NCBI GenBank assembly: GCA_965222605.1
Contig: OZ244960.1
Coordinates: 3,136,001 to 3,200,000, forward strand
Reading direction: 5' to 3'
Origin: Candidatus Latescibacterota bacterium
GTDB lineage: Bacteria; Latescibacterota; UBA2968
DNA: 64,000 nt
A model generated the notes under the pieces. That model had not been told where the DNA came from. It saw nothing but the letters and a program-made list of their open reading frames with translations, and searched no databases. Numbering within the stretch: the stretch's first letter is position 1; each line of letters starts with the position of its first letter. Below are positions 23,880 through 62,380 of the stretch, piece after piece. A program made the position numbers and the translations under genes.

Positions 23880-25040
23880 ATGCCAACGCAAACCGATCAG
23901 CTCAAACAACGCAATCGCGAACTTTCTATTCTCAATGCGATCGCCCATGCACTCAACCAGTCTGTGGATCTCGATCAAGCCCTGGAGACAGCGCTTGAAA
24001 AAGTAGCTGCACTGCTCGATTTGAGTACCAGCTGGATATGGCTCATGCACGAAGAAACGGGCGAACCCTATCTGGCTGCTGCACAAAACTTACCCCCTGT
24101 ATTGCGCGATAATCCAGATAGAATGGGTGGCTGGTGCTATTGTCTGGACACCTATCAGAAAGGCGATTTGAAGGGGGCTGCTAATGTGAATGTCGTGACA
24201 TGCAGCCGATTGAAAGGACTTGTAGAGGGAACAGACGGGTTGCAGTACCACGCGAGTATTCCACTGTATGCCCAGAAAAAAAAGGTGGGGGTGTTGAATG
24301 TGGGCAGTGTTGAATGGCGCGAGCTTTCGGATGAAGATTTGCGCTTGCTCAATACCGTGGGCGATTTGATGAGTATTGCTATTGAGCGGGCGCGTTTGTA
24401 CGAAAAAAGCGTTGAGATTGGTGCTGCGGATGAGCGTCTCCGCGTTGCGCGAGAAATACACGACACTCTGGGTCAGAATCTGGCGGCGATCTTAATGCGG
24501 TTGGAAATCCTGGATGCGTTGCTCGAAGATAATACAGATCGCAAAAAGCTGTCTGAAACCGTGCGCGATGCCATGGCTTTGGCGCGCGATAATCTGGAAG
24601 ATGCGCGGCGCACTGTGCTGGATTTGCGCGCTGCACCGCTTGAAAATCGCACATTGGCCGAAGCATTGCAAGATCTGGGGCGCGAAATAGGAGACGAGAC
24701 AAATCTGGATATACGCGTAAAGAGTATTGGCGGATATCCCTTGTCTGTGCGGGTCGAAGCGGGGTTGTATCGCATGGCTCAGGAGGCGTTGAACAATGTT
24801 GTGCAACACGCAAGAGCCAGAAGAGTTCTGGTTGAACTGACCTCAACGCCCGAATACGTAGAACTCGTGGTTGAAGACGACGGGCGCGGGTTTGATCCTG
24901 CAAACGTGTCAGAAGGCCGATATGGCCTGGTTGGGCTGAATGAGCGGGCGCATTTGCTCGGGGGATCTTTTGCAATTGAAAGTGCGCCCGAGCACGGTAC
25001 GCGTTTGGATATCCGCATTCCTTTGGAGCGCAAAATATGA
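23880..25040 (+). CDS. GAF-domain sensor histidine kinase (HisKA_3), Cys-rich, AirS/YhcS-like
   Basis: ERLRVAREIHDTLGQ H-box, QEALNNVVQHA, DDGRGF; GAF contains WCYC (C86/C88) and C108. Confidence 0.9.
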   Translation: MPTQTDQLKQRNRELSILNAIAHALNQSVDLDQALETALEKVAALLDLSTSWIWLMHEETGEPYLAAAQNLPPVLRDNPDRMGGWCYCLDTYQKGDLKGAANVNVVTCSRLKGLVEGTDGLQYHASIPLYAQKKKVGVLNVGSVEWRELSDEDLRLLNTVGDLMSIAIERARLYEKSVEIGAADERLRVAREIHDTLGQNLAAILMRLEILDALLEDNTDRKKLSETVRDAMALARDNLEDARRTVLDLRAAPLENRTLAEALQDLGREIGDETNLDIRVKSIGGYPLSVRVEAGLYRMAQEALNNVVQHARARRVLVELTSTPEYVELVVEDDGRGFDPANVSEGRYGLVGLNERAHLLGGSFAIESAPEHGTRLDIRIPLERKI

Positions 25041-25657
25041 GTACGCCAATTCGCATTGTGGTTGTAGATGATCATCCAGTTGTGCGCGATGGCCTTATTG
25101 CAATGTTGAATACGCAGTCCGATTTTGAGGTGGTGGGAGAAGCAGGCGATGGGGAAGAAGCATTGCAGAAGGTTGCAAAACGCAATCCCGATGTGCTATT
25201 GCTCGATCTGGAGATGCCGGGTGTAGATGGGATTGAAACGCTTCGGCGATTGCAAAACGAAAAGGAGCAGGTGCGGGTCATTGTATTTACGGTTTTTGAT
25301 ACGGATGAGCGCATTGTATCGGCTATGCAGGCCGGGGCAAAGGGTTATTTGCTCAAAGGCGCGCCCAGAGACGAGGTGTTTCGCGCCGTGCGCGTGGTCA
25401 ATGAAGGCGGGTCATTGCTCGAGCCCCTTGTTGCTTCCAAGTTTCTGGATAGTGTAAACAACCCGGATGCGTTGACCGCGCGGCAAAAGGAAGTGCTCAA
25501 ACTGCTGGCAACGGGTCTGTTGAACAAGGAAATTGCCGATCAACTCGGTATTGCAGAACGCACGGTGAAATTTCACGTGAGTGAAATACTGGCGAAACTC
25601 GGCGCGGGCAATCGCACAGAGGCAGTGGCTGTTGCGACGCGGAAAGGGTTGATATAA
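25037..25657 (+). CDS. NarL/LuxR-family response regulator
   Basis: VVDDH, DLEMP receiver; LTARQKEVL...NKEIA...TVKFHV HTH. Confidence 0.93.
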   Translation: MSTPIRIVVVDDHPVVRDGLIAMLNTQSDFEVVGEAGDGEEALQKVAKRNPDVLLLDLEMPGVDGIETLRRLQNEKEQVRVIVFTVFDTDERIVSAMQAGAKGYLLKGAPRDEVFRAVRVVNEGGSLLEPLVASKFLDSVNNPDALTARQKEVLKLLATGLLNKEIADQLGIAERTVKFHVSEILAKLGAGNRTEAVAVATRKGLI

Positions 25658-25686
25658 CGATAAGCATAACGCTACATGCAACGCGA

Positions 25687-25754
25687 CCTGTCCGAAAGGA
25701 CAGGTTGTTTTTGTCCCTGGGGACGATGTTTTGGGGTTTCGGATGGCGTATTTT
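25687..25754 (+). promoter_or_regulatory. Tandem palindromic operator plus -10 box (site A); first palindrome may also terminate the regulator gene
   Basis: CCTGTCC-GAAA-GGACAGG, then GTCC-N4-GGACGAT, 21 nt, TATTTT; same layout at 42569 and near 62358. Confidence 0.65.
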
Positions 25755-25798
25755 TGGGGTGAGATTAGATATCATCCCGATAAACAAGGAGGCATACC

Positions 25799-27568
25799 AT
25801 GGCTGTGACGACAATTGATTATGTGCCCTGTGCGCGTGTGGAAGATATTCCCGAGGGTGGGATTATAGCGGTGAATGTGGAGGGCCATGCGATTGCGCTG
25901 GCAAAGTCAGATGGCGAGATTCGGGCGGTGGATAATCGGTGCCCGCATATGGGGTATCCGCTGAGTGAGGGGTCGATTCACAATGGGTTGATTATTTGCC
26001 ACTGGCATCACGCGCGGTTTGATCTGGTGAGTGGGTGTACGTTTGATCCGTTTGCGGATGATGTTCGGAGTTATCCGGTGGATGTGCAGGATGGTGAAAT
26101 TTATGTGAATGTGCATGCCACGCATCCCGATCCGGTGGGACATTGGAAGCGACGGTTGAGCGAGAGTTTGGAGCAGAATATCAATCTGGTGATTGCCAAG
26201 TCGGTGATCGCGCTTCGGGGTCAGCGGGTCGATGGGGATGAGATTGCAGAGATTGGCGCGCGATATGGTGCGTTGAGGCGGCGTCAGGGGTGGGGGCCGG
26301 CGTTGACGATTTTGACGTGTATGGCCAATGCGGTGCCAAAGCTGGCGAATGAGGATCAGGTTCTGGCGCTGTATCAGGGGTTGTTGCATGTGGCGCGCGA
26401 GACGAGTAATGCATCGCCGAGGATTGTTTTTACGCCGCTGGAGACAGAGGAACTGACGCTCGCGCGTATTAAGGAGTGGTTCCGCTATATGATTGAGGTG
26501 CGGAATGCCGATGGTGCGGAACGCGCTTTGTTGACGGCGATTCAGATGGGGGCAACGTCTTCGGAGATGTGCGATATGCTGGTGGCAGCAGCGACAGATC
26601 ACTTTTATCGCGATGGCGGGCATGTGCTGGATTTTATCAATAAAGGTTTTGAGATGCTCGAGCGCATTGGATGGGACAAAGCCGATGAGATTTTGCCTTC
26701 GCTGGTGGGGGTGCTTTCAGGCTCACAGCGCAGTGAGGAGTTGAATCGGTGGCGCAGTCCCGTTGATCTGACGGCGTTGTTACACGGTGCGTTTGATGAG
26801 CTTGAGGATCTGGTTCGAGAGGGCGAGGGAAAGACGTGGGACGATGCGGATGCTTTGACGGAGATTCTGTCAGGTGATGATCCGCATGCGATTGTGGATG
26901 GGCTGAAGGCGGCATTTGCCGGGGGGGCGACGCTGACGCAGTTGACGCAGACGTTGGCTTATGCAGCGGCTTTGCGGATTGCGCGGTTTCACGTTAAGAA
27001 TGAGTTTGGCGATTGGATTGCTGTGTTGCATACGCATTCGGCGGCTAATGCGCTGCATCAATGTGCAAAGCGCGCGCCGTCATTGGAGTTGGCGCGGGGA
27101 ATTTTCCACGGTGCAATGGCGCTGTATTTTGACCGGTGGTTTAATAAGCCAGCAGCCAGATTGCCGCAGGATCAGCGCGCGACCCAACAGTTGCCGGAAG
27201 ATGCAGATGAGTTGCTGGATTCTTTTGTGGAGTTGCTCGATACACAGGCACAGGTGGATGAGGCGGGGCGGATTGCGTATCGGTATTTGTCGCTGGGGCA
27301 TCCGCGCGGTGAGTTGTGCGAGCGGTTGGGCCATGTGTTGCTGCGGGAAGATGCGGAGTTTCATTCGTTTCAGATGCTGGAGTCTGCATTTAGCCAGGCA
27401 GAGGAGCTGGATGAAGAACGCGCACGGATTACGCTGGTGGGCGCAGCGCGCTATCTGGCAGCGCATGCACCAACGGCGCGGGCGTTGAAGCAGACGGCGA
27501 ATTTGGCGCTTCGACTCCACCGGGGAGAGGATCTTTCGGCTGAAGATCCGGATGAGGATGTGGGGTGA
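25799..27568 (+). CDS. Rieske [2Fe-2S] domain fused to a large helical domain
   Basis: NRCPHMGYPL...CHWHHARFD Rieske ligands; AGGAGG RBS. Confidence 0.85.
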   Translation: MAVTTIDYVPCARVEDIPEGGIIAVNVEGHAIALAKSDGEIRAVDNRCPHMGYPLSEGSIHNGLIICHWHHARFDLVSGCTFDPFADDVRSYPVDVQDGEIYVNVHATHPDPVGHWKRRLSESLEQNINLVIAKSVIALRGQRVDGDEIAEIGARYGALRRRQGWGPALTILTCMANAVPKLANEDQVLALYQGLLHVARETSNASPRIVFTPLETEELTLARIKEWFRYMIEVRNADGAERALLTAIQMGATSSEMCDMLVAAATDHFYRDGGHVLDFINKGFEMLERIGWDKADEILPSLVGVLSGSQRSEELNRWRSPVDLTALLHGAFDELEDLVREGEGKTWDDADALTEILSGDDPHAIVDGLKAAFAGGATLTQLTQTLAYAAALRIARFHVKNEFGDWIAVLHTHSAANALHQCAKRAPSLELARGIFHGAMALYFDRWFNKPAARLPQDQRATQQLPEDADELLDSFVELLDTQAQVDEAGRIAYRYLSLGHPRGELCERLGHVLLREDAEFHSFQMLESAFSQAEELDEERARITLVGAARYLAAHAPTARALKQTANLALRLHRGEDLSAEDPDEDVG

Positions 27569-27571
27569 GAC

Positions 27572-27597
27572 GTAGGGGCGGGTCCCCGTGCCCGCCC
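27572..27597 (+). repeat. GTAG-type REP element
   Basis: GTAGGGGCGGGTCCCCGTGCCCGCCC. Confidence 0.7.
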
Positions 27598-27673
27598 GTG
27601 GCGGGACGGATGATTCCAGATCACAGACAGGTATTACAAAAGCCTGTACCAGCGATGGTGCAGGCTTTTGTAT

Positions 27674-28066
27674 TTATATAGTCGGTTCCCATTTTCCCTT
27701 TACGCGATAGGCTTCGCGATCGCCGGGCCACGGCGGCATGGTGATGGCTACGGCGCACAATGGTTCGCTGTTGTGGGCGCGAAATTGGAAGTGTGTGTCT
27801 TGTGGTATGGTGAGGGTTACGCCGGGGGCGAGGGGTGCGATTTCTTCGCGGTTGGCCTGTTTGCGCCACATTTCACCCTGTCCGCTGATGATGTACCAGA
27901 TTTCTTCGACGGTGCGGTGGGCAACGGCGATGGATGTTTTTCCCGGGGCGAGTTCAAAGTGGGCCATGCCACCGCTTTTGAGTTCGAGGAGTATGCGAAC
28001 ATCGGATCCATCGGGCGCGGTGACGTCGGGTTCCCGGGGCAGGCGTTTCGTGCTGAATTCGGTCAT
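27674..28066 (-). CDS. Cupin-domain protein
   Basis: AVAHRTVEEIWYIISGQGEMW and IPQDTHFQFR. Confidence 0.85.
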   Translation of the reverse strand: MTEFSTKRLPREPDVTAPDGSDVRILLELKSGGMAHFELAPGKTSIAVAHRTVEEIWYIISGQGEMWRKQANREEIAPLAPGVTLTIPQDTHFQFRAHNSEPLCAVAITMPPWPGDREAYRVKGKWEPTI

Positions 28067-28091
28067 GGTGTTCTCCTAAAAGCGATTCAAT

Positions 28092-28118
28092 GTAGGGGCG
28101 GTGCCCCTGTGCCCGCCC
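28092..28118 (+). repeat. GTAG-type REP element
   Basis: GTAGGGGCGGTGCCCCTGTGCCCGCCC. Confidence 0.7.
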
Positions 28119-28149
28119 GTTGGGTGGCAGGGCGACGGGGATTGCCGAT

Positions 28150-28713
28150 TTACATTTCTTCTTCTATAGTTTTACGAAGCAGTAATTTTCCGCGGTACAG
28201 CCAGGTTTTTACTGTGCCTATGGGTACTTGCATGGCTTTTTCGATTTCGGCATACGAATAATCCTCGATATAACGCAGGCGCATGGCTTCGCGATATTGT
28301 TGTGGCAGTGTTTGTATGCTCTTGCGTACGAGGTGTTGGCATTCTCGTGCGTGCAGGGCGGTTTCCGGGTCTTGTGTGCAGGCTGGGGCGATTTTTTCTA
28401 TGCCTTCTGGGGAGTGAAAATAGGTTGCCCATTTGCGTCGCACGGATTGCGATTCGCAGTGCGAGAGGCATACGTTCATTGCTATGCGGGTCAACCAGGT
28501 TGAAAATGCCGCGTCACCGCGAAAGCGATTGAGTCCCTGGTATGCTTTTATAAATGCGATTTGAACCAGGTCGTCGATGTCGTCCTTGTTTTTTGTGTGG
28601 CTGGCTACAACCGAATAAATTCGGGCTACGTTTGCTTTGTACAGTTTGCCAAATGCGATCCCATCACCCATCCGCGCTTTTAGAATCATTGTCTGTTCTT
28701 CGTTCGGTGCCAT
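28150..28713 (-). CDS. ECF sigma factor (paralog of 13152..13733)
   Basis: GDGIAFGKLY, RFRGDAAFSTWLTRIA, VPIGTVKTWLYRG; GAGGAG RBS before ATG at 28713. Confidence 0.9.
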   Translation of the reverse strand: MAPNEEQTMILKARMGDGIAFGKLYKANVARIYSVVASHTKNKDDIDDLVQIAFIKAYQGLNRFRGDAAFSTWLTRIAMNVCLSHCESQSVRRKWATYFHSPEGIEKIAPACTQDPETALHARECQHLVRKSIQTLPQQYREAMRLRYIEDYSYAEIEKAMQVPIGTVKTWLYRGKLLLRKTIEEEM

Positions 28714-28828
28714 GATACTCCTCTTGTGTCGTGAGGTCATGTTGTTTTTGTTGTTCGTCCATTGTGTTTCGCACCGATTGTTGTTTGGGTGGTCCTCGAA
28801 TGGGATTGCGATGGTGGTAGGGGGCAAC

Positions 28829-28863
28829 AAAAAACCCGACATCGAATCTATCTCGATGTCGGG
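28829..28863 (-). terminator. Intrinsic terminator inside the ECF 5' leader
   Basis: CCCGACATCGA/TCGATGTCGGG 11-bp stem followed by TTTTTT. Confidence 0.75.
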
Positions 28864-29047
28864 CATATAGGGTGTAGGCACCAAAAACCCCACTCAGGGG
28901 TTGGCAAAATTTTAGCCTCCAGGGCATAATCGCCGCCTCCTGGAGGGATAATGGCGGTGTAAATAGACCATTTTATTTTACCTAAAGGTATTTAAATTCA
29001 GGTATTTATCTCCTAAAATCAGAGGGCTTTTGTTTTTGGGATTGGAC

Positions 29048-29076
29048 AATATAGCCCATTCTGTGTTTTCGTGCAA
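29048..29076 (-). promoter_or_regulatory. Sigma-70-type promoter upstream of the ECF leader
   Basis: TTGCAC-17 nt-TATATT on the minus strand. Confidence 0.55.
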
Positions 29077-29161
29077 GAAAAAATCTGTACCATACAAAAA
29101 AATTATTGTTTGGAAAATGAGGTGGGGTTGTTCACATTGTTAGCCTATATATTAGACCGGG

Positions 29162-29184
29162 TAGGTGAAAATTGTACGTCACGG
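29162..29184 (+). repeat. 23-bp direct repeat, copy 1
   Basis: TAGGTGAAAATTGTACGTCACGG, identical at 32607..32629. Confidence 0.85.
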
Positions 29185-29210
29185 GGTACGGCAAAAAGGG
29201 TTTTGTGTAA

Positions 29211-30161
29211 TCAAAACTGAACGACAAAATCAATATACGGAACGCCGGGAAAAATTGCTCCATCTCCTATCGTATTGATCAGCCCCAGATCTACGCTTAA
29301 TCGTTTGCCAAAAAATCGTATTCCATAAGAGATCAAGGGTTCGTCTATGCCGGGAAAGATCCAGTTTTCCGTAACAAATGCCGTCCGTCGCGTCAAGCGC
29401 TTCTCTCCTCCAATCATTACCATAGGGCGATCTGCCAAATTTCCGTCCACAAAACCATAACCAAGCCCTGCCGTCAGGCTGGCATCGGGTTGCCCAAATG
29501 TTGTTACACCATACAATATGCCCGCAACTTCAGGGTCATCTTGAAAGACATCATCGTCCCCAGGAATACGCACGAGAAGTGCGCCCATGGCAAAAGAGAA
29601 AGTCTTTTCCTGTACTAATCCGAATTTTGGTGCAACAAAAAATAATTGATCATTCATATCCACGCCGGGAAAGATGGAAAGTCCTCCTCCCAGAGTAAAG
29701 CGATCTGTGATCCCATAAGCAAAGCCTGGAAAAAAGAGATAATAATCAGAAAAATAACCTTTGCCCTGTTTCAGCATACGCGCCGTAGGTGCAAAGAATA
29801 GGCGTGTTATATTGGGATTTGCAAACCAGAGTTCTCCCTTTCGTATTAAGTCAACAGACACTGTTTCAATGTGTTTGATCTTTGAAATGGAAATGTGGAT
29901 AATGCCCAGGTCTGTCTTAAATGCGATCTCTTCAGTACCAATCTCCACAATGCGTCCGATATTTGTCGATCCATCGGTTGTTTCAAGCACCTGAATTTGA
30001 GTGGAATCGGGAATCGCCAACCGGGAGGTTAGGGAGGATGGTGCGTTCTTCGCGTGTTCTTCTGCAAAGATACTATTTAGAGAAATTGCAGTATAGATCA
30101 AGAGTAACCATTGCGCTCGTATCATGACGAAACCCTCTGGATAGGAGATTAAAACAAACAC
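29211..30161 (-). CDS. Exported/outer-membrane hypothetical protein (start uncertain)
   Basis: 316-aa ORF with a signal-like segment, amphipathic beta character and C-terminal Phe. Confidence 0.65.
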   Translation of the reverse strand: MFVLISYPEGFVMIRAQWLLLIYTAISLNSIFAEEHAKNAPSSLTSRLAIPDSTQIQVLETTDGSTNIGRIVEIGTEEIAFKTDLGIIHISISKIKHIETVSVDLIRKGELWFANPNITRLFFAPTARMLKQGKGYFSDYYLFFPGFAYGITDRFTLGGGLSIFPGVDMNDQLFFVAPKFGLVQEKTFSFAMGALLVRIPGDDDVFQDDPEVAGILYGVTTFGQPDASLTAGLGYGFVDGNLADRPMVMIGGEKRLTRRTAFVTENWIFPGIDEPLISYGIRFFGKRLSVDLGLINTIGDGAIFPGVPYIDFVVQF

Positions 30162-30251
30162 ATCAAGACCGTAAATTTGTCCTATTGTTCACGATTTGTC
30201 CCGTATAAAGTTTCAAAAAAGTGACAATTTTTCAGACACTGTCTGAAAATA

Positions 30252-30280
30252 AAAGCCCTGCTGGTTTAAGCAGGGCTTCG
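30252..30280 (-). terminator. Intrinsic terminator
   Basis: AAGCCCTGC/GCAGGGCTT stem with a T-rich tail on the minus strand. Confidence 0.6.
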
Positions 30281-30315
30281 ACGTAATTAGAGCAGAACCG
30301 GCCGTTTCCCGCTTT

Positions 30316-30663
30316 TCATAACTCAGAGACCGAAAGCACTGTGGTATAATACGCAAGCATGGCGTTGTCGGCGTCCGATTCAGTAATTTCATAAGGGATA
30401 GATTCAAATGATTTGTGCTCTTGTGCATCCAGTTCTTCTGAAAGGTAAAATTCATGAAGAATATCGTTTCTGCCAAAAGAAAAATTTCTGTCACCCTTAT
30501 CGGCTATACGCACATCCGCTAAGAATACGACAGCGGAAAATATGACTTTAACCTTTTTAGAGTGATGGTTCTGTAGTGATCCTCCGACAGTAACAATATT
30601 GTCTATTTTGCTCATAGATATACCACTTTCATCAATCTCTACTGCTGATGTATTCAGCATCAT
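30316..30663 (-). CDS. Hypothetical protein (AT-rich)
   Basis: 115-aa ORF with GAGGA RBS, followed by a terminator. Confidence 0.55.
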   Translation of the reverse strand: MMLNTSAVEIDESGISMSKIDNIVTVGGSLQNHHSKKVKVIFSAVVFLADVRIADKGDRNFSFGRNDILHEFYLSEELDAQEHKSFESIPYEITESDADNAMLAYYTTVLSVSEL

Positions 30664-30716
30664 AGTTTAATCCTCGTTTTTCCCATTCAGGATAGCTTAA
30701 TGGCGGTGAGATGCGA

Positions 30717-31007
30717 CTAACGAGGTATCAGCCGAATGTCCAGACGACAGCCAACAGCCTCTGCATATTTTTTGAGAGTGGCAAGAGAAGGAGAATGCTT
30801 TTTGTGGCGTCCCGATGCTTCAAGACGTGCAACTGCGGGTGTTTGGGTGCCCATCTTTTTTGCCACATCCGCCTGGGTTAAACCTGCATTCTTTCTGGCT
30901 CTGAGCATTTCATCAAAAAGCGCAAATTCGTCTGCAAGCGCGTCGTATTCAGCGACAAATTCTGGATCTTTCTTCCATTCATCAATCATTTCACGATGTG
31001 TTTTCAT
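30717..31007 (-). CDS. XRE/HTH antitoxin (HigA-like)
   Basis: RARKNAGLTQADVAKKMGT...VARLE; coupled to the upstream toxin. Confidence 0.85.
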   Translation of the reverse strand: MKTHREMIDEWKKDPEFVAEYDALADEFALFDEMLRARKNAGLTQADVAKKMGTQTPAVARLEASGRHKKHSPSLATLKKYAEAVGCRLDIRLIPR

Positions 31008-31326: not shown

Positions 31327-31333
31327 ATCAAAA

Positions 31334-31351
31334 ATTAACAAATTTGTTAAT
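31334..31351. promoter_or_regulatory. Operator palindrome of the TA operon
   Basis: Perfect 18-bp palindrome ATTAACAAATTTGTTAAT just upstream of the toxin ATG. Confidence 0.7.
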
Positions 31352-31426
31352 AAAAAGCAACTCATAATTCTTCTTTTGATATTATACGGCAATGCCGTAT
31401 ATTTTATTTTTATAAGGAGATCGAAA

Positions 31427-31699: not shown

Positions 31700-31720
31700 G
31701 AACCCGTTCTCTGGCGACGT

Positions 31721-42568: not shown

Positions 42569-42636
42569 CCTGTCCAAAAGGACGGGCTTTTCTTGTCTCT
42601 AAGGACGATGTTTTGGGATCGCGAATGGGGTATTTT
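42569..42636 (+). promoter_or_regulatory. Tandem palindromic operator plus -10 box (site B); first palindrome may also terminate purA
   Basis: CCTGTCC-AAAA-GGACGGG...GTCTCTAAGGACGAT-21 nt-TATTTT, colinear without gaps with 25687..25754. Confidence 0.65.
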
Positions 42637-42720
42637 GAAGTAATCCGAACGAAACTCCGAACGTTTCGATTTTGTCAAAGAATACGCAGAATATTCAGAA
42701 TACCACACCAACCATAGTTT

Positions 42721-43431
42721 ATGGAGATAAACCCGATGCCGTCTCTTCCCGTTGGCGATTTTGTGCCGTCTGTGTCTGAAGTACGCACCCCGCGACGGAT
42801 GGATTATGAAGGTGAGTATATCGCGCTGTCTCCTCTCGCTTCCGAAAGGGATGCGCCCGGGTTGTTTGCATGTTCGCATAGGACAGAACACAAGGAGCAG
42901 TTGTGGACGTATATGGCGTATGGGCCTTTTGAAGATGTGTCGTCTATGCAGGAGTGGCTTGAGCAGATTGAGGGTTCGGAGGATCCGCTCTTTTTTGTTG
43001 TTCGAGATAAATTATCGGATCGGTCTATTGGGATGGTCAGTTTTTTGAATATTGCGCCCGATGCGCGGCGGTTGGAGCTTGGGAATATCTGGTATGGACC
43101 CGAGGCACAAAATACGTGTGCGAATACCGAGGCCGCGTATCTTATGCTGTGCGAGGCTTTTGATTGTATGAGTTATCGCCGCGTCGAATGGAAATGCGAT
43201 GCGCTCAATAAACGCTCGCGGTCTGCTGCGCTCCGCCTGGGGTTCACTTATGAAGGGCTTTTTCGCCAGCACATGATTGTTAAAGACCGCAATCGGGATA
43301 CGACGTGGTTTTCTATGCTGGATACAGAATGGCCCGCGATTAAAGAAAATATGGAAGAATGGTTGTATCAAAATCCCGATAAATCCTGGTCGCTGAGGGA
43401 AAAGAATCAAGAGTTGGGTTGCGCGAGGTAG
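42721..43431 (+). CDS. RimL-type GNAT acetyltransferase (alternative start 42736)
   Basis: YRRVEWKCDALNKRSRSAALRLGFTYEGLFRQH...RNRDT. Confidence 0.88.
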   Translation: MEINPMPSLPVGDFVPSVSEVRTPRRMDYEGEYIALSPLASERDAPGLFACSHRTEHKEQLWTYMAYGPFEDVSSMQEWLEQIEGSEDPLFFVVRDKLSDRSIGMVSFLNIAPDARRLELGNIWYGPEAQNTCANTEAAYLMLCEAFDCMSYRRVEWKCDALNKRSRSAALRLGFTYEGLFRQHMIVKDRNRDTTWFSMLDTEWPAIKENMEEWLYQNPDKSWSLREKNQELGCAR

Positions 43432-43691: not shown

Positions 43692-44621
43692 ATGGCCGAA
43701 TATGACTCTGTCTCCAAAGATCTGATCCAGACCTATCCCAAAGACTTTATCCGCCTCACACTTGAACAGGACGATGTAGAAGTCCTGGACATACTCGATA
43801 CGGAGCAAAACACGGTTGATACACGACATACCGATAGCCTCATCCGCGTCCATATTGCGGGCAAGGAGGCATTGATACATCACGAGTTTCAGACGACTGA
43901 CGATCCATCTATGCCGCTCCGCATGGCGGGCTATATTATACGTGCGATAGAGCAGCACGGTCTGCCGGTTTCTTCCAGTGTGATCTATTTGCGGCGCAGT
44001 GCAGGTCGGCGCGATCCGGGGCACTTTATTCAGGAAATATCCGGCCGTCGCGTTTTGATAGAATACACAGTGATTCGGCTCAGTGAGATAGAGGGACAGG
44101 ATATTATTGATGGCGGGCCTTCGGGCTTGTTTCCGTTCGTGCCGTTGATGAAACGGCCTGATAGGATAGATTCAGAAGCGTGGTTGCGTCACTGTGTTGA
44201 CGCGACGAATGCGCTGCCAGTGGATGAATCAATAAAGATTGACTTTTTAGGCAGGTTGATGATATTGAGTGGGTTAGAGTATGATCCAACACTAATCAAT
44301 CGTATTCTATCACAGGAGGGTCTTATGGATGCCATTATGCGCGAATCGTCGTTTGCACAATACCTTAAGCAAGAAGGCATTGAAGAAGGCATTGAGCAAG
44401 GTATTGAGCAAGGTATTGAGCAAGGTATTGAGCAAGGGGGCAGGCAACGTGCCATTGAAGATATCCTCGATGTGTTGGAGATTCGATTTGACCTGAGCGA
44501 AGCGCACCCTCTATCCACCCGCATTGCCTCCATTGACGATTTGCAACACCTCAAGCAGTTGCTCCGTGCGGCGATACAGGTGCCCAATCTCGAGGCATTT
44601 CAGCGCATGTTAGATGCGTGA
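43692..44621 (+). CDS. Rpn/YhgA-like PD-(D/E)XK nuclease with EQGI repeats
   Basis: YDSVSK, TDSLI...HHEFQT...MPLRM, MRESSF and (E/Q)GIE tandem repeats. Confidence 0.8.
   Translation: MAEYDSVSKDLIQTYPKDFIRLTLEQDDVEVLDILDTEQNTVDTRHTDSLIRVHIAGKEALIHHEFQTTDDPSMPLRMAGYIIRAIEQHGLPVSSSVIYLRRSAGRRDPGHFIQEISGRRVLIEYTVIRLSEIEGQDIIDGGPSGLFPFVPLMKRPDRIDSEAWLRHCVDATNALPVDESIKIDFLGRLMILSGLEYDPTLINRILSQEGLMDAIMRESSFAQYLKQEGIEEGIEQGIEQGIEQGIEQGGRQRAIEDILDVLEIRFDLSEAHPLSTRIASIDDLQHLKQLLRAAIQVPNLEAFQRMLDA
44370..44437 (+). repeat. 12-bp coding tandem repeat (GAGCAAGGTATT-like)
   Basis: Encodes QEGIEEGIEQGIEQGIEQGIEQG. Confidence 0.85.
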
Positions 44622-56447: not shown

Positions 56448-56724
56448 GTAAAATTCCAAATTTTTCGCGCAGTCCACGAAGTTCATATTCGAAATTTTCG
56501 GGGGAGTAATCAATCGCAGGCACATGATGATCATTCATGAGATCTAAAAAATCATGCCGGGACAGGTTAAGCAACTCTGCACCCTTTCCCACACTGATTT
56601 TTCCTGTACGCACCAAATCTAAAACGGTTGCCCGGGTGGCCTCTTTTGTTGCTTTCTGAGCACCACCGAGTATTTCGACGAGTGGCTCAGGCAACCTGAT
56701 CGTCAATTCCTTTTCAGTAGCCAA
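56434..56724 (-). CDS. UPF0175-family protein (putative antitoxin)
   Basis: GKISVGKGAELLNLSRHDFLDLM. Confidence 0.8.
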   Translation of the reverse strand: MATEKELTIRLPEPLVEILGGAQKATKEATRATVLDLVRTGKISVGKGAELLNLSRHDFLDLMNDHHVPAIDYSPENFEYELRGLREKFGILPTKN

Positions 56725-56727
56725 GAT

Positions 56728-57279
56728 TCATCTCTTGTATTCTGATTTTGTGATCTCAAAGTCCAGCGTCTTTCCGTTATCCATTTCTCTTGAGACGGTC
56801 AATCCACATGACCGCCACAAGGCTTTTGAACGCTCGTTGTCTGCACGCACATCCATCGCGCAGAATCGATCAATTCCCAATTCCTCAAATGCGTACGCCA
56901 TCAGGCGTCGCACCACTTCTTTTCCATAGCCTTTATCCCATTGGGATTTGTCCCATATCCCAATGGGCAAGCGCATTATCTTCTCACTCTCGATTTTTGC
57001 CCGTTCCAAATTCATCCACTGCAAACATACTTCGCCAATGGTTCGTCCACTCGCCTTTTCCTCAATTGCAAATAGGAATCCCTGTTTTGCCATGTGTTTG
57101 CCTACACGTCTGAGATAGTCACCTGTCACGGGTTCTTCAGGTGGCTCTCCCTCCATTGCATTCAGAAAATCGGGATCTCGATAAAAAGGCACCGCGAGAT
57201 CAAAATCAGCGTCCTCAAATGGTCGAAGCCTCAAGCGTTCTGTTTTCAGGTGAATATTGTGAAGAGCAAAGTTGTCCAT
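56728..57279 (-). CDS. GNAT (RimJ/RimL-type) acetyltransferase
   Basis: LKTERLRLRPF, WDKGYGKE, NERSKAL. Confidence 0.85.
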   Translation of the reverse strand: MDNFALHNIHLKTERLRLRPFEDADFDLAVPFYRDPDFLNAMEGEPPEEPVTGDYLRRVGKHMAKQGFLFAIEEKASGRTIGEVCLQWMNLERAKIESEKIMRLPIGIWDKSQWDKGYGKEVVRRLMAYAFEELGIDRFCAMDVRADNERSKALWRSCGLTVSREMDNGKTLDFEITKSEYKR

Positions 57280-57600
57280 CTATTGAATCACGGATCTCGA
57301 TGTTGCGTTCAGGCGCGTTACCACGATGCGCTCTCGGTCAATTAGCGCACCTACCTGATCGCTCAATGTGTCGGTCCAGTACGGGTCTTCATAGACGGCT
57401 TTGTAGAGTTGCTCCCTTTGTTCCTCGCTTTCAAATCGACGGATCCACACGTAGAGATCGTCTTCTTCTTCGCCGACAAAACTACCGATAACTACCATGC
57501 CTTTTGATATTTGAAATGGGATGATTTCACTCTCCATAAATGCAACCCATTCTTCTCGTTTTCCAGGTTGGGTGCGATATTGACGTAATTCAAAAAACAT
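57280..57600 (-). CDS. NIPSNAP-family protein
   Basis: MFFELRQYRTQPGK...YVWIRRFES. Confidence 0.85.
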   Translation of the reverse strand: MFFELRQYRTQPGKREEWVAFMESEIIPFQISKGMVVIGSFVGEEEDDLYVWIRRFESEEQREQLYKAVYEDPYWTDTLSDQVGALIDRERIVVTRLNATSRSVIQ

Positions 57601-57634
57601 ATTTTTTTCCTTTGTGAGTGTTGTGATGGGAATC

Positions 57635-57862
57635 TCATGTCGAAGAAACAGACATAAGCCTGCGCTCTCGGTCCGCGGCAAATGCCAGGCAGGCGCGAAT
57701 GTCTTCTCGTGTAAGTTCGGGAAAGTCACTCAAGATTTCTTCAACAGACATGTCTGAGGCAAGATAGTCAAGCACGTCATAAACGGTGATCCGCATGCCG
57801 CGAATACACGGTTTCCCACTGCGTTTGCCAGGTTCAATGGTGATGATGTGTTGGTAGTCCAT
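57635..57862 (-). CDS. DUF433-family protein (putative antitoxin)
   Basis: GKPCIRGMRITVYDVL...FPELTREDIRACLAFAA. Confidence 0.9.
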   Translation of the reverse strand: MDYQHIITIEPGKRSGKPCIRGMRITVYDVLDYLASDMSVEEILSDFPELTREDIRACLAFAADRERRLMSVSST

Positions 57863-58091
57863 TGTCTTCCTTTTTTTAAAGGATTAAAATGCACGGCGAC
57901 GATTTAACTAATAGCCCGTAAGTCCCATCGCATCGGCTTTAGCGATGGGTCGCATGGCGAAGGGCTTACGAATCCCTACTTTCGCAGGGACATGCTTATG
58001 GAGCGGTGCTCTATCAGTGGGCATATCGCTAAGAGGCGATATGGATGCGGTGCGCCAACCAGATTTTTCCTCTATTCCCACGAAAAATGAC

Positions 58092-58120
58092 TTGACATAA
58101 TATACTCATAACTATATATT
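58092..58120 (+). promoter_or_regulatory. Sigma-70 promoter, probably giving a leaderless tnpB mRNA
   Basis: TTGACA-17 nt-TATATT, ATG 6 nt later and no Shine-Dalgarno. Confidence 0.7.
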
Positions 58121-58126
58121 TTTATT

Positions 58127-59245
58127 ATGCTTAAGTCCTTTAAATACAGATTGCGTCCGACGAAAAAACAGGAGAAAATCCTACTGGCGCACATTGAAGA
58201 ATGTCGCTTGCTGTATAACCAACTTGTCTGTGCAAGAGTGCAAGCATGGGAAAAGAATAAAGAAAGTTTATCTCGTTTCGAGCAACAGGCGACATTGCCA
58301 ATGCTGAAGCAACAGCGTATATCTTTTTCTCTTGTATACTCTCAAGTTCTTCAGCAAGTATGCCAGAGAGTAGATTGGGCGTTCAAAGGATTTTTCCGTC
58401 GCCTCAAAGAGCGGGCAAAGACGGGCGAGAAAGCTGGCTTTCCAAGATACAAGGGTCAGAATCGCTATGATTCTATCACCTATCCTCAGTTTTCCAACGG
58501 ATGCTGGCTGGACGAGAAGGGCTTGCGATTGGGTAAGATAGGCTGTATTCGTGTTGTGCAACACAGACATCTTGAAGGAACGCCCAAATCTTGCACAGTC
58601 ACACGCACGGCTACTGGTAAGTGGTTCGTGTCTATCTCTTGCGATATTGGTAGTGTGCGAGAAAAACGGGATGATGGCTCTGCCATAGGCATTGACGTGG
58701 GCATTGAAAAGTTCGCCGTGTTTTCTGACGAGACAAAGGTCGCTAATCCTCGCTTTTTTCAAAAAGAGGAAAAGGCACTTGCCAAAGCACAACGCAAGTG
58801 GGATAAAGTTAAAAAAGCGTCGCCAAAGAGACGCGAGAGAGCACGTAAGGTTGTTGCCAGAGTGCATGAGCGTATCCGTAATAAGCGACATAATTTTGTG
58901 CATCAAGCGTCTCGAAAGATAGTGAATAAATACGGCTTTGTTGCCGTAGAGAAGTTGAAAGTTAAAGCGATGCAAAAGCGTCGCCGTTTGTCTAAGCGTA
59001 TTTCCGACGTAGCGTGGTCACTGTTTCGGCATTGTCTCGAATACAAAGCGGAAGAGGCTGGTATTGGATTCAAGGCCGTAAATCCTAAATATACGTCGCA
59101 AGACTGTTCAGCTTGCGGACACAGAGAGAAGAAAGAACTTTCTGATCGTGTGCATCAGTGTAGGCAATGTGGTTATACCACAGACAGAGACCACAATGCT
59201 GCGATAAACATATTGACTTTGGGATTACAAAGTCAGGTGGCTTGA
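58127..59245 (+). CDS. tnpB: RNA-guided nuclease TnpB
   Basis: FKYRLRPT N-terminus, GIDVG (RuvC-I), VAVEKL (RuvC-II), CSACG/CRQCG, DRDHNAAINI (RuvC-III). Confidence 0.95.
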   Translation: MLKSFKYRLRPTKKQEKILLAHIEECRLLYNQLVCARVQAWEKNKESLSRFEQQATLPMLKQQRISFSLVYSQVLQQVCQRVDWAFKGFFRRLKERAKTGEKAGFPRYKGQNRYDSITYPQFSNGCWLDEKGLRLGKIGCIRVVQHRHLEGTPKSCTVTRTATGKWFVSISCDIGSVREKRDDGSAIGIDVGIEKFAVFSDETKVANPRFFQKEEKALAKAQRKWDKVKKASPKRRERARKVVARVHERIRNKRHNFVHQASRKIVNKYGFVAVEKLKVKAMQKRRRLSKRISDVAWSLFRHCLEYKAEEAGIGFKAVNPKYTSQDCSACGHREKKELSDRVHQCRQCGYTTDRDHNAAINILTLGLQSQVA

Positions 59246-59282
59246 CCGCCAAGAAGCCCAACTCCTCTATCGTTGGGAGTAA

Positions 59283-60359
59283 TCACATTTGTTCATACCA
59301 CCGCACATTGCCGGTTGACATACCGCTTGCTGCGATGTCCAATTTGCCGTTGCCGTTGATATCTACGACTTCCATTTGCCCCATGCCAATGCCGTTGTCG
59401 ATTTGTTCAATGTGCCATGTGTCTGTTTTCAGGTTCTCTGGACGATAGATGTTGAGGGCTGTGCCCGGACCGTTGTATCCGGCGACGACTTCCAGTGCGT
59501 TGTCGCTGTCTATGTCGCCACACCACAGGGAATGTCCGCGGTTGAGTTTGTCGCTGATTAGATGGCGTTCCCACGCGCCTGTTCGGATGTCGCTGGCCGC
59601 TTTGTACCAGACGAGTTCATTGCCGTGCCAGGGTTCGATGGATAGTATTTCATTCACGCCATCTCCATCTATATCTACGGCAAAGGTCTCGCTGCTTTCG
59701 CGGGGGCTTATGGTCCACCGGTTCCAGTTTTCCGCAAATCCATCCCCTTTGGGTGGCTCAAACCAGATCAGGCCGTCGCGTGTGCCGAGCAATAAATCCA
59801 TGCGGCCATCGCCATCTACGTCGCATACACTCAGGCCGTGATTGAGTCTCAATTGCCCATCGATTAATCGTTTTTCCCACGGTTCATTTACCGGGTCTTG
59901 GGGCACGCGATAACACCACAATTCACCCGGCGCATCAAAATCGTTGATATGGCTTCCCGCCCCTTGCAATGTCGCTACAAATAGCAGGGGTTGCCCGTTG
60001 ACATCTACCATTGCTATGCGGTGTAAATAGGGTACCCAGTCGATGAAGTGTTGTGTCCAGGCAGGTGCTTGAAACCAGTGCAAGTACTCCGGTGGTATCC
60101 GCTGTCTTCGCGCAAATCCGCTGCCTGCAATTACGTCTTTTCGACCGTTGCCCGTGACGTCGAATACCGATAGGGCGATGGTGCCGGGGTGCGCTTCTGA
60201 GATTATTTGTTTCTCAAAATCGGGACCTTCGTACAGGGCGATCATCGAGATTCCCGTGGAGCCGACCACGATGTCCAGGTGTCCTGTGCCTGTGACATCG
60301 GCGACTGTCATGCCATAGGCGCTGAGGATGTTGTCGTCTATTTCGTGAATTTTGAACAT
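59283..60359 (-). CDS. FG-GAP/VCBS repeat beta-propeller protein
   Basis: Repeated D-[VI]-x-G-x-G-x-x-D motifs; EPWHGN. Confidence 0.8.
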   Translation of the reverse strand: MFKIHEIDDNILSAYGMTVADVTGTGHLDIVVGSTGISMIALYEGPDFEKQIISEAHPGTIALSVFDVTGNGRKDVIAGSGFARRQRIPPEYLHWFQAPAWTQHFIDWVPYLHRIAMVDVNGQPLLFVATLQGAGSHINDFDAPGELWCYRVPQDPVNEPWEKRLIDGQLRLNHGLSVCDVDGDGRMDLLLGTRDGLIWFEPPKGDGFAENWNRWTISPRESSETFAVDIDGDGVNEILSIEPWHGNELVWYKAASDIRTGAWERHLISDKLNRGHSLWCGDIDSDNALEVVAGYNGPGTALNIYRPENLKTDTWHIEQIDNGIGMGQMEVVDINGNGKLDIAASGMSTGNVRWYEQM

Positions 60360-60415
60360 GTGTTCTCCAGTTTTGACTGTTCTCCTTATCGCTAATGGCT
60401 CAATATACCGCGTGT

Positions 60416-61525
60416 TCAAGGCAAAATCAAATGTAGATCGCCGAACTCGTGCCACAAATAATGTTTGTTGAGTGCGGCTTCATAAGTCAGTTTTAAGTGT
60501 TCTAATCCCGCCAATGCCTGGAGCATGGATAGATGTGTGGCACTCGGTTCGTGCATTCCGGTCAGCAAGCCATCTACAATTCGCATGGGATGATTGGGTG
60601 AGATTATCAGGGATGTCCATCCTTCACCTTGAGAGACCTGTCCGGTTTTATCGGCAACGGTCTCGAGTGCGCGCACTACTGTTGTGCCAATGGCGATGAT
60701 CCGTCCGCCATTTTTTCGCGCGTTGTTGATTACCTGCGCTGTTTCGGCTGATACGCGGTAGTATTCCTCGTAAGGCGGTTCATCGGCTTCCAGGCTTGCC
60801 ACGCCGGTGTGCAAGATCAGGGGTGCAATTTGAATGCCTTTTGCGACCAATTTTGTGATGATTTTGGGTGTGAATGCTCGGCCAGCCGATGGCATTTCAG
60901 CGCTGCCTATTTCTGTTGCATATACGGTTTGGTAATAGTCGATAGGCCAGTCGTTTTGCACATATCCATACCGGATGGGCATGCCGTATATATCCAGGTA
61001 CATATCCAGATCATAAGGCAGGTTCAGGGTTGCAACCCAAAGACGAATATCGGCGTTGGGAGTGTGCCGCTGTTCGGGGCGATAGGGCGCGTGCAGTTGT
61101 GCGGATCCACCACCGGGTAATGTAAAGACTTCGCCCGCGTGTGCATGAGAAAAAGGCAGTGTTGCTATATCATTGGGTTGACGTACTTCAACTGCCCACA
61201 TGTCGGCGGGCAGTTGCGTTGATAAATGCAGTCTGAGTTCTGTACCATCGGGCCGAATGATGGGCAAAGATGCTTTGCGCGTGCCACTGGTGTTGATGAC
61301 GACTACGTCGCCTGCATGTAGTACATTGGGCAGGTCGCGAAATGCGATGTGTTCAATCGCATCATCTCTTTGCCAAGAGACCATCAACCGAACCTGGTCC
61401 CGGCTGAGTCCACGCTCTTCGGGCGGTTCACCCGCTTCCAGATTGGATGGCAGGTCAAATGTTAGAGAGTCCAGCTTTGAGTCCATCATTGTAATGGGTA
61501 GTACTGTGTTGGGTATTATGGACAT
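60416..61525 (-). CDS. QueA-like protein (non-canonical subfamily)
   Basis: QueA fold (GDVVVINTS, YQTVYA, IAIGTTVVRALE) but GSAEMPSAGRAF/YLWHEFGD in place of the canonical APTAGLHF/YRFYSYGD. Confidence 0.82.
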   Translation of the reverse strand: MSIIPNTVLPITMMDSKLDSLTFDLPSNLEAGEPPEERGLSRDQVRLMVSWQRDDAIEHIAFRDLPNVLHAGDVVVINTSGTRKASLPIIRPDGTELRLHLSTQLPADMWAVEVRQPNDIATLPFSHAHAGEVFTLPGGGSAQLHAPYRPEQRHTPNADIRLWVATLNLPYDLDMYLDIYGMPIRYGYVQNDWPIDYYQTVYATEIGSAEMPSAGRAFTPKIITKLVAKGIQIAPLILHTGVASLEADEPPYEEYYRVSAETAQVINNARKNGGRIIAIGTTVVRALETVADKTGQVSQGEGWTSLIISPNHPMRIVDGLLTGMHEPSATHLSMLQALAGLEHLKLTYEAALNKHYLWHEFGDLHLILP

Positions 61526-61539
61526 GAGAAGTCTCCTTT

Positions 61540-62241
61540 TTAGTTTACGAGCGCGGCGCGTAACTCGCGTGCTGCGTAGCGGCCACTGGGAGAATTACTT
61601 TTCAGGAGTTCGATAAATCCCGGTACACTCGTTTCTGGCAAGGGGCGGTCGCTGATGTCTTCGAAAGGAAATGCTTCGCGGTGCATTTGCGTTCGCATAT
61701 CGCCGGGATCTACCCAGTAGATGCGCCAGTCGGGACGTTCTGCTGCGAGTACGTTTGAGAGTTGTTCAAGTGCGGCTTTAGAAGAGCCGTATCCGCCCCA
61801 GCCCGGGTATGCTTCGCGGGCGGCATCGCTGGTGATATTGATTACGCGGGCATCTAATTTTAATGTGTGTTGAAGTGCCTGGAGCACGCCCAGAGGTGCG
61901 ATTACATTGGCGCGATAGACGTCTGTCAGGATGTCGAGCGGGTAATTGAGCAATTCGGGTTGGGGACTCGGTCCCAATATGCTCGCGTTGTTGATTAAGG
62001 CGTCCAATCCACCGAGTTCATTTGCAGCGTGAGTTAGTGCTTTCCGATGTTCGGGGTCTGTTACGTCTCCGGCAATGGCGATGACGTCGGTCCATTTGCT
62101 CAGTTCTTCGCGTGCGTCTTCGAGTGCGTCTGCGCCTCTTGCGTTGATGATAAGTCGCCAGTTTTGCTGTACGAGTTCACGTGCGAGTGCCAGGCCCAGA
62201 CCACGAGATGCGCCGGTAATGAGAGCTGTTTGTGTTGACAT
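61540..62241 (-). CDS. SDR-family oxidoreductase
   Basis: TGASRGLG, NNAS, YGSSK, DPGDMRT; AGGAGG RBS. Confidence 0.9.
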   Translation of the reverse strand: MSTQTALITGASRGLGLALARELVQQNWRLIINARGADALEDAREELSKWTDVIAIAGDVTDPEHRKALTHAANELGGLDALINNASILGPSPQPELLNYPLDILTDVYRANVIAPLGVLQALQHTLKLDARVINITSDAAREAYPGWGGYGSSKAALEQLSNVLAAERPDWRIYWVDPGDMRTQMHREAFPFEDISDRPLPETSVPGFIELLKSNSPSGRYAARELRAALVN

Positions 62242-62289
62242 TTTGAAACCTCCTGTTAGGTTGAGATGCCATCTGTTTGTTGTGGTCAA

Positions 62290-62380
62290 AATGTAGCATA
62301 AAAAAAAGCCCTCTGCATCGCACAGAGGGCGTGTTTGAATCCCGTTCTTTAGGACAGGAAAGGACCTGTCTATTTTGTCA
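62290..62380 (-). promoter_or_regulatory. Operator plus -10 box (site C), overlapping the upstream gene's terminator
   Basis: Minus strand AGACAGG...CCTGTCC-TAAA-GAACGGG...CGAT-21 nt-TACATT; GCCCTCTG/CAGAGGGC + T-run terminator at 62300-62330. Confidence 0.6.

Follow-up and report, generated by a model that had tools for sequence, protein, structure and literature searches.

The 64,000-nt stretch of DNA analysed here (the window; positions 3,136,001 to 3,200,000 of contig OZ244960.1, assembly GCA_965222605.1, Candidatus Latescibacterota bacterium) carries the genes for a two-component pair, a cytoplasmic sensor histidine kinase (23880..25040, plus strand) and a NarL/FixJ-family response regulator (25037..25657, plus strand), and, at three separate places, copies of a module of about 70 bp that very probably marks a regulon of this pair. 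The first copy, site 1 (25687..25754, plus strand), lies before the gene of a 589-aa Rieske-domain protein (25799..27568, plus strand); the second, site 2 (42569..42636, plus strand), has purA upstream and the gene of a GNAT acetyltransferase downstream (42721..43431, plus strand, its start probably the ATG at 42736 behind GGAG); and the third, site 3 (62290..62370, minus strand), precedes the genes of a short-chain dehydrogenase/reductase (SDR; 61540..62241, minus strand) and a QueA-like protein (60416..61525, minus strand). A first-pass annotation of the window had seen one promoter architecture at the three sites and had credited it to the kinase/regulator pair; the strings and spacings it listed, down to an additional half-site at site 3, were all found in the sequence, and Pfam upheld its labels for the kinase, regulator, Rieske, GNAT, SDR and QueA-like genes. 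We know of no work on transcriptional control in the Latescibacterota, an uncultured phylum represented here by genomes from sponge-associated metagenomes. A literature search, at the level of its search results, turned up no paper on the gene cluster or the motif, and the part of PMC1282579 that was consulted held nothing on clusters of QueA paralogs.

By their Pfam domains the two proteins form a two-component system of the NarL/FixJ type. The kinase combines a single GAF domain (residues 29-169) with HisKA_3 and HATPase_c domains (E-values 1.2e-14 and 4e-13) and has no membrane segment that could be seen by eye, and the regulator combines a receiver with a GerE helix-turn-helix (3.4e-31 and 5e-22). 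The GAF domain carries a CxC…C triad, C86, C88 and C108, which was invariant in all 11 aligned orthologs from genera g1, g5, g6, g8 and g9 (genera and families of the order are numbered here, g1 being the genus of the window), in keeping with the cysteine-GAF sensor that had been proposed. The best NCBIfam match of the regulator was the MadR family at 183 bits, below the cut-off of 300, followed by NarL at 172.6, and its closest solved chains were VraR (5hev, 150.6 bits), ChrA, NarL and DevR (3c3w_A, 136 bits).

Three copies of one module

At site 1 an inverted repeat, CCTGTCC-GAAA-GGACAGG (25687-25704), is followed by a T-run, a second inverted repeat, TTGTCCCTGGGGACGA (25711-25726), CGATG (25724-25728) and TATTTT (25749-25754), all on the plus strand; counted another way, the 23 nt after the first repeat end in GGACGAT (to 25727), and a further 21 nt lead to TATTTT. 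Site 2, on the same strand, has an inverted repeat with GGACGGG as its second arm (42569-42586), a small second hairpin, CGATG (42606-42610) and TATTTT (42631-42636). On the minus strand, site 3 begins with the extra half-site GACAGG (62370-62365) and continues with CCTGTCC-TAAA-GAACGGG (62358-62341), 24 nt ending in CGAT, 21 nt and TACATT (62295-62290); it includes a terminator hairpin (62330-62308) with CGATG in the loop (62320-62316) and eight T residues (T8) behind it. Of 20 genus relatives, 18 have the site 1 type ahead of the Rieske gene, and 18 have a match to the site 3 region.

A gapless alignment of sites 1 and 2 has 55 identities in 68 positions. Sites 1 and 3 share 38 of 69 positions with one gap, compared with a mean of 18.7 (standard deviation 3.5, maximum 33) in 2000 shuffles. 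When the whole genome of 6,338,376 bases (G000) was searched with a profile of sites 1 and 2, these two were the only matches (E 2.9e-21 and 1.9e-20, next E 1.6), and site 3 scored at the level of chance (7.1 bits, E 30). The possibility that site 3 is a chance match was overturned by the 38 of 69 identities, by intermediates found in g5 and g9, where the first half of the region before the Rieske gene is like site 3 (CCTGTCC-TAAAG…CAAAAC-CCGCCCTCTGTTCGATG) and stands in the place of site 1, and by a broader family profile. This profile, which was built from 34 distinct members in relatives and whose seeds included copies of the site 1 and site 3 types and none of the site 2 type, matched site 1 at E 6.4e-17, site 3 at 2.5e-15 and site 2 at 2.1e-11. 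There was no fourth match in the 6.34-Mb genome, the next best having an E of 1.5. A post-hoc pattern, CCYGTCCNNNNGRACRGG, was also confined to them (5 strand hits, 0.43 being expected from composition). Further regulon members in this genome were considered and rejected, as the strict repeat was not in excess and the family profile gave three sites only. On these comparisons we take the three sites to be copies of one conserved cis-regulatory family.

A module family across the order

A strict composite pattern of the module was found at 58 places in 28 of the 53 genomes of the order, and the reversed pattern, used as a control, at none in all 53; two of the 58, those in G035 and G027, are not followed by an SDR or Rieske gene and appear to be chance matches. 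The shared layout is an inverted repeat CCYGTCC-N4-GRACRGG, 19-20 nt, CGRTG, exactly 20 nt and TAnnTT, and it is held over four gene contexts while the sequences of the spacers between the blocks differ. Five types could be distinguished by context: type A (site 1 and its counterparts in relatives) and type E (in g5 and g9) before the Rieske gene, type B (site 2) between purA and the GNAT gene, type C, which is absent from the window's own genome, before a 192-aa flavin mononucleotide (FMN) reductase-like gene in seven relatives, and type D (site 3) before the SDR and QueA-like genes, including the SDR ortholog in all 15 g6 genomes. By genus, the module was present in 18 of 20 genomes of g1, two of three of g9, the one of g5, and 6 (strict pattern) or 15 (profile) of the 15 of g6. 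The view that the sites form one family with promoter-like geometry is supported.

Whatever lies further upstream, module sites are invariably 5' of a gene and in the same orientation as that gene. The upstream flanks switch exactly at the module edge, to rbsD, the kinase/regulator pair or repeats in the A type, and to three or four different kinds of sequence in the D type. A terminator, overlooked in the first-pass annotation, is part of the module (see below). The same half-site word is present two to four times per module. In most copies the gap between repeat and CGAT is 19-20 nt, with about 44-45 nt in G046, in the SDR copy of G024, in G129 and in G140, and about 35 nt in G150; family f4 retains the repeat with a flipped spacer.

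Types A, B and C are 78-81% identical to one another (55/68, 54/68 and 53/68), types B and C are limited to g1, and the B type is decaying: among 15 B-type loci in relatives, eight are full length, five have an internal deletion that removes TATTTT and two retain the hairpin only. Site 2 is a genus-specific copy in decay, and the link to the GNAT gene is both recent and decaying. These features are also what would be expected if the similarity reflected recent intergenic duplication, i.e., a propagated "mobile promoter" or repeat with no shared regulation. Such mobile promoters, homologous upstream regions before unrelated genes, were reportedly described by Matus-Garcia et al. in Nucleic Acids Res in 2012, and the g1 copies before the unrelated Rieske, GNAT and FMN reductase genes resemble them; unlike them, the copies here come with a definite operator and terminator, and their family is older and bound up with a single regulator pair. 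Duplication with no shared regulation is in our estimate very improbable, since the D and E types are old, their geometry being the same throughout families f1, f2 and f4 ahead of orthologs with 38-80% identity at the protein level, and since three blocks that stay fixed while the spacers diverge indicate selection.

Some module loci have been altered in other ways. At the C-type loci L050-L054 a partial second copy of the module middle (GRTGTTTTTAAGGCTTC) about 40 nt upstream of the repeat hints that the module was duplicated in tandem. In L021 and L032 (G020 and G017) the A-type module has received an insertion of roughly 60-120 nt, a simple repeat rich in CTTCT (…TCACTTCTTCCTTCTTCC…), which lies just 5' of the module in one genome and between TATTTT and the Rieske ribosome-binding site in the other. 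At two B-type loci the module is cut after its hairpin by insertions between purA and the GNAT gene, one of about 2.3 kb (L049, G019), and one (L040, G014) comprising the ortholog of a 309-aa open reading frame (ORF) which in the window follows the GNAT gene (43692-44621) and has a weak match to the Rpn-family nuclease/transposase.

Linkage to the kinase/regulator pair

Gene linkage was surveyed with tblastn plus profile searches; related genomes are not independent, and the co-occurrence counts are thus descriptive. In all 15 g6 genomes the module is followed by co-directional SDR, QueA-like, kinase and regulator genes. Other genomes have the same elements in different orders: module, SDR, QueA-like, kinase, regulator, module and Rieske in G024 (g5); module, QueA-like, kinase and regulator with, further along, module and Rieske in G047 (g9); kinase, regulator, module and Rieske in G048 (g9); and kinase, regulator, module, SDR and QueA-like in G046 (g8). 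Family f4, whose QueA-like proteins are 57-60% identical, has kinase, regulator, inverted repeat, hairpin, SDR and QueA-like in G129 and G140, and inverted repeat, Rieske-like gene, inverted repeat…CGATG-N20-TATGAT, SDR, QueA-like, kinase and regulator in G150. The order in the window's own genome and three relatives is rbsD, kinase, regulator, module and Rieske.

Within this order of bacteria, then, the idea of a cluster that has been split held up, with the cluster intact throughout g6 and rearranged in g5, g8, g9 and f4. The companion idea that the Rieske gene had been gained did not: because in g5, g9 and one f4 genome that gene sits in the cluster behind its own copy of the module, we regard it as ancestral to the cluster. 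The kinase is present in g1, g9, g5 and g6, the module-bearing genera counted above, and neither kinase nor module was found in the ten genomes of g2, g3, g4, g7 and g11. In g1, possession of a full-length kinase and of the QueA paralog coincides exactly, both being present in the same 15 relatives, and in the five relatives lacking an intact kinase no QueA paralog was found at E ≤ 1e-70. In those five the kinase was not found in G010 and G018, was truncated in G019 and G020, and was not found in G012, a genome that is 91% complete.

The linkage could also arise if the modules were promoters or operators read by some other factor, such as the extracytoplasmic function (ECF) sigma factor encoded at 28150-28893 or an unlinked transcription factor, with the kinase and regulator genes among its targets. 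Several findings are compatible with this: the CGRTG-N20-TAnnTT core is unlike the TTGACA-type promoters of the genome, the kinase and regulator of g6 are downstream members of a module-driven operon, the ECF sigma gene adjoins the Rieske gene in all genus loci examined, and in G021 an ECF sigma gene lies near the SDR and QueA-like genes with no kinase found within about 4 kb. G019, G020 and G012 moreover retain intact A-type and C-type modules despite having no intact kinase that could be found. Against this, the recurrent partner in five arrangements over three families is the kinase/regulator pair and not the ECF gene, and the spacing from GAAC/GGAC to CGAT is 22-23 nt, compared with the 16-17 nt of ECF promoters. 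A regulator gene within its own operon is, besides, usual for autoregulated two-component systems, of which liaIH-liaFSR and Rv3134c-devRS are examples. We consider control by another factor improbable.

Candidate operator, terminator and promoter

If the module acts as DNA, its repeat should behave as a protein site, and in several ways it looks like one. In f1, f2 and f4 the inverted repeat CTGTNC-N4-GNACAG has been kept upstream of the SDR and Rieske orthologs, as an operator would be. The palindrome persists although its spacer changes, being NAAA in the sense direction in f1 and f2, TTTG in f4 and, in four copies of the B type, TTTT; position 5 of each half-site varies freely with no regard to pairing, pair 11-18 being unpaired in 22 of 39 sequences. 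The alternative is that the module acts mainly as RNA, be it a 5' leader with an attenuator or a family of terminators, and that its linkage to the kinase and regulator reflects membership of one operon and not binding. For the repeat itself the evidence is divided. The arms are unchanged where the loop flips in f4 and in the four B-type copies, which speaks against an RNA; a strand test of the first hairpin was a draw (78.6% vs 75.8% paired on the two strands), with the mismatch at pair 11-18 being a G-U on the antisense strand only. Pair 8-21 of the first repeat, with 21 UA, 10 UG, 7 CG and one non-pair, looks compensatory, a pattern that a pure protein site does not predict.

A terminator scan picked out 25683-25708 (11 pairs) at site 1 and 62330-62308 (10 pairs, T8) at site 3 as intrinsic terminators; the T-run of site 2 (CTTTTCTTGT) did not pass the scan, and the first palindrome and T-run there are terminator-like, as in site 1. 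Pairing in the second hairpin of the D type amounts to 95.7% in the sense and 89.5% in the antisense orientation, each of the 10 one-sided changes yields a G-U in the sense strand only, and at pair 11-21 CG (12 sequences) is exchanged for UA (6). A portion of the module is a true terminator, oriented in the sense direction. Also favouring an RNA, the CCTGTCC of the D type can pair with either an upstream GRCAGG or a downstream GNACNGG, and folding z-scores on the sense strand were -2.8 to -3.7; the antisense strand folds equally well (-4.1 and -2.6). In the related record L089 the hairpin alone remains, 24 nt before the Rieske start codon and too close for a promoter to intervene, and metatranscriptome contigs from two studies span rbsD, the whole module and the Rieske gene. 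The latter indicate that the module is covered by read-through transcripts, or by DNA in those libraries; the evidence consists of contigs, from which neither starts nor ends can be read and whose uncovered parts carry no meaning, and the runs with related sequence were mostly sponge metatranscriptomes.

Other features sit poorly with a module that acts only as RNA. TAnnTT lies exactly 20 nt past CGRTG and beyond the U-run, where it would have no role in a terminated leader, and is the point at which the similarity of the A, B, C and D types ends. There is no conserved promoter upstream from which a leader could be transcribed, the flanks changing at the module edge, and Rfam 15 had no match to the 64-kb window at gathering thresholds, the best relaxed hits being PyrR at site 3 (20.2 bits, threshold 54) and OmrA-B at site 1 (15.7, threshold 40). 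With no Rfam match, a preQ1 or other riboswitch before the QueA-like operon was rejected. A leader peptide from the ATG or GTG within CGRTG was also rejected, as no peptide is conserved and a Shine-Dalgarno sequence is missing from the D type. Overall we hold a mainly RNA function to be unlikely.

The box itself resembles a -10 element. Housekeeping promoters of the genome are sigma-70-like, TTGACA-N16-18-TAnnnT occurring 113 times in the sense and 46 times in the antisense direction upstream of 1649 genes, and the boxes in the window (TATTTT, TATTTT and TACATT) conform to TAnnnT; in relatives the box reads TAAATT, TAGATT, TATCTT, TATGAT or GAATTT. All of these lie 40-100 nt ahead of start codons, the distance for the TAnnTT box of types A to D being 40-70 nt. 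None of the three sites was found in a scan for consensus promoters. Other promoter classes were considered and rejected: a Bacteroidetes-type promoter (TTTG…TAnnTTTG) as the general type, TAnnTTTG occurring 120 times sense vs 87 antisense and the TTGACA type dominating; a sigma-54 reading of site 1 (TGGCGT…), which is not common to the C, D and E types; and ECF-type and sigma-28-type spacings, from whose consensus values the distances here depart.

A proposed small regulon with insulated promoters

The module is thus most readily understood as the operator and core promoter of a small regulon of the cysteine-GAF kinase and its NarL-family regulator, a reading to which we attach moderate confidence. 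As the three sites are copies of a module that travels with the kinase and regulator in relatives, one small redox-type regulon is the most likely explanation. In the proposed mechanism a dimer of the phosphorylated regulator would bind the inverted repeat CTGTNC-N4-GNACAG, of which a module has one to three, counting half-sites; with TAnnTT as -10, their centres would fall near -65 and, in type A, near -42. Bound there, the regulator would activate a promoter whose -10-like box is conserved and whose -35 position is occupied by a conserved CGRTG, with no TTGACA. A built-in intrinsic terminator on the sense strand, formed by the first repeat and T-run in types A, B and C and by a separate hairpin and T-run in type D, would shield this promoter from read-through of the upstream gene, acting as an insulator. 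The targets in this genome would be the Rieske-domain/questin-oxidase-like protein, the SDR and QueA paralog (with an FG-GAP protein) and perhaps the GNAT protein, joined in seven relatives by the FMN reductase-like protein. The cis-regulatory family is real and conserved; its working as an operator with an insulated promoter is, in our judgement, rather probable.

Several observations weigh against this reading, the bridging contigs and the compensatory pair 8-21 among them. No TTGACA lies 16-18 nt upstream of the box, the hexamer at 17-nt spacing being RTGnnn, and the variable offsets between repeat and CGAT are out of helical phase, with no single fixed distance. The strict repeat CTGTNC-N4-GNACAG occurs at five sites genome-wide, 6.0 being expected, and site 1 alone is intergenic. 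Modules are intact in the three kinase-deficient genomes noted above. Finally, the placing of the pair beside site 1 applies to the window's own genome and to three of 18 A-type loci in relatives; in 14 of the 18, rbsD abuts the module and the pair is not adjacent. The kinase of those genomes, 83-87% identical, is sited elsewhere behind three unrelated genes, and no module or repeat was found within about 4 kb of the relocated pair in the seven loci scanned. Taken alone, this non-adjacency within the genus would weaken the idea of co-regulation; it is offset by the strong linkage over the order.

In its parts the proposed regulon has parallels among NarL/FixJ systems, whose operators are likewise short-spaced, e.g., TTGCGG-N4-CCGCAA for ComA, TAGGG-N4-CCCTA for NreC, and the VraR/LiaR boxes. 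Shared with them are the HisKA_3 kinase with a receiver-GerE regulator, a 6-4-6 inverted repeat that is sometimes tandem and lies upstream of a promoter with a weak -35, and, in g6, regulator genes within the operon that they would control. Differences are that CTGTNC-N4-GNACAG and CGRTG correspond to no motif known to us, and that the module holds a terminator. The mycobacterial DosS/DosT-DosR (DevSR) system is similar in its cytoplasmic GAF kinase and NarL-type regulator (DevR, 3c3w_A, being among the matches of the regulator here), in a plausible redox-type signal, in targets rich in oxidoreductases and in operator words of GGAC and GTCC. The Dos box is GGGAC-N4-GTCCC; the half-sites here are reversed, GTCC-N4-GGAC, and so do not conform to it. 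In addition, the kinase here has one GAF domain with the CxC…C triad instead of a pair of GAF domains with a haem histidine, and the target genes differ.

For a phylum of uncultured bacteria these comparisons furnish a concrete operator/promoter candidate that is open to work in a heterologous host, and they outline a small regulon of a Rieske-oxygenase-like protein, an SDR and QueA paralog, an FMN reductase and perhaps a GNAT protein, providing a conserved genomic context for a QueA paralog with no assigned function. They also give a clean case in which a regulatory module has spread by duplication to further genes and its regulator pair has relocated from one target locus to another. Within one genus the pair (23880-25657 in the window) occupies either of two chromosomal positions: behind three unrelated genes that include an oligopeptidase-like gene (compare the neighbourhood of G000:C1:903817-907774), or, as a precise insertion, directly after the stop codon of rbsD and ahead of the A-type module.

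The products of the proposed target genes

The Rieske-domain protein has an N-terminal, ferredoxin-like Rieske [2Fe-2S] domain and an all-helical domain of about 450 aa. Its Pfam match was confined to residues 9-103, Pfam giving no questin-oxidase-like family, and Foldseek with the whole model returned matches to the N-terminal Rieske domain only. In the AF2 model (mean pLDDT 80.4), residues 140-560 aligned to questin oxidase 7y3w_A with a Z of 16.9 (331 aligned, rmsd 4.5, 10% identity), and the helical domain to hydroquinone dioxygenase 8z4q_A with a Z of 14.6 (323 aligned); mostly helical models typically have a best Z of about 14, which limits the weight of both values, and the likeness to questin oxidase is thus a lead and not proof. 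Homologs of the fusion protein (loci L102-L154) that are 66-75% identical occur in records titled Poribacteria, and others of about 53% identity in records titled Gemmatimonadota or similar; these have ordinary TTGACA/TAAAAT promoters upstream and no module. Such identities are high for different phyla, and the gene may have been exchanged among sponge symbionts.

The QueA-like protein has a full-length Queuosine_synth domain (Pfam, 255 bits), as does QueA, the tRNA preQ1(34) S-adenosylmethionine ribosyltransferase-isomerase. It falls below the equivalog cut-offs of NCBIfam (181.9 bits vs 324 for NF001140, 166.8 vs 267.45 for TIGR00113), the genome has a canonical queA (452 bits) at G000:C1:4919233-4920255, and the second copy is always found alongside the SDR and this kinase/regulator set, not tgt. 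On these grounds we regard the product of 60416..61525 as a QueA paralog and not the housekeeping enzyme. Its nearest protein-atlas clusters are commonest in Actinomycetota, a lead and no more on the clustering of such genes in Actinobacteria that the first-pass annotation had put forward. Translation of the SDR gene probably begins at the ATG of 62241, which AGGAGG precedes (its longest ORF extends to 62289), in agreement with orthologs that begin MS..TALITGASRG. A gene for an FG-GAP repeat protein (59283..60455, minus strand; Pfam) overlaps the end of the QueA-like gene and, judged from this 40-nt overlap, possibly belongs to its operon.

Together with the FMN reductase-like protein of the seven relatives, the Rieske, SDR and QueA-like proteins look like a set for the oxidoreductive handling of quinone-type or similar compounds, and the targets and the three invariant cysteines of the sensor would fit a redox or quinone-type stress response or a metabolite pathway. 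One may go further and picture a self-contained, insulated promoter cassette of operator, terminator and core promoter that was copied within one genus to new loci, after purA and before the GNAT gene, and before the FMN reductase gene, bringing these genes under a GAF sensor that detects redox state or quinones through its cysteines, the core of its regulon encoding an undescribed pathway of sponge symbionts. In that pathway the QueA paralog and SDR would move a ribosyl or cyclopentenoid unit derived from S-adenosylmethionine to an acceptor other than tRNA, and the Rieske-fused questin-oxidase-like oxygenase would cleave or oxidise quinone-type aromatics. As a joint proposal, all of its parts included, this is speculative and rather doubtful.

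Neighbouring features

Beyond the Rieske gene, an ORF with no family match (27668-28261, plus strand) converges on the ECF sigma gene (28150-28893, minus strand), with an overlap of about 110 nt at their 3' ends. Both are kept beside the Rieske gene in genus relatives; one start or end is probably miscalled.

Site 2 is separated from the GNAT start by a 47-nt stretch (42645-42694) that is 87% identical to an apparently coding internal part of a gene 2.4 Mb away (G000:C1:5594486-5594532, minus strand) and is found in many relatives as well, with one copy in each genome. This appears to be the relic of a gene fragment, and a purine-repressor box, considered at this position, was rejected on account of the full copy of that gene.

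In the genome as a whole, TGGCAC occurs upstream of genes 59 times in the sense and 16 times in the antisense direction, a bias that suggests a sizeable sigma-54 regulon. Lastly, a near-consensus promoter, TTGACA-17-TATATT (11/12), lies at 58092-58127 and ends 7 nt before the ATG of the gene at 58127-59245, whose mRNA would thus be leaderless or nearly so.

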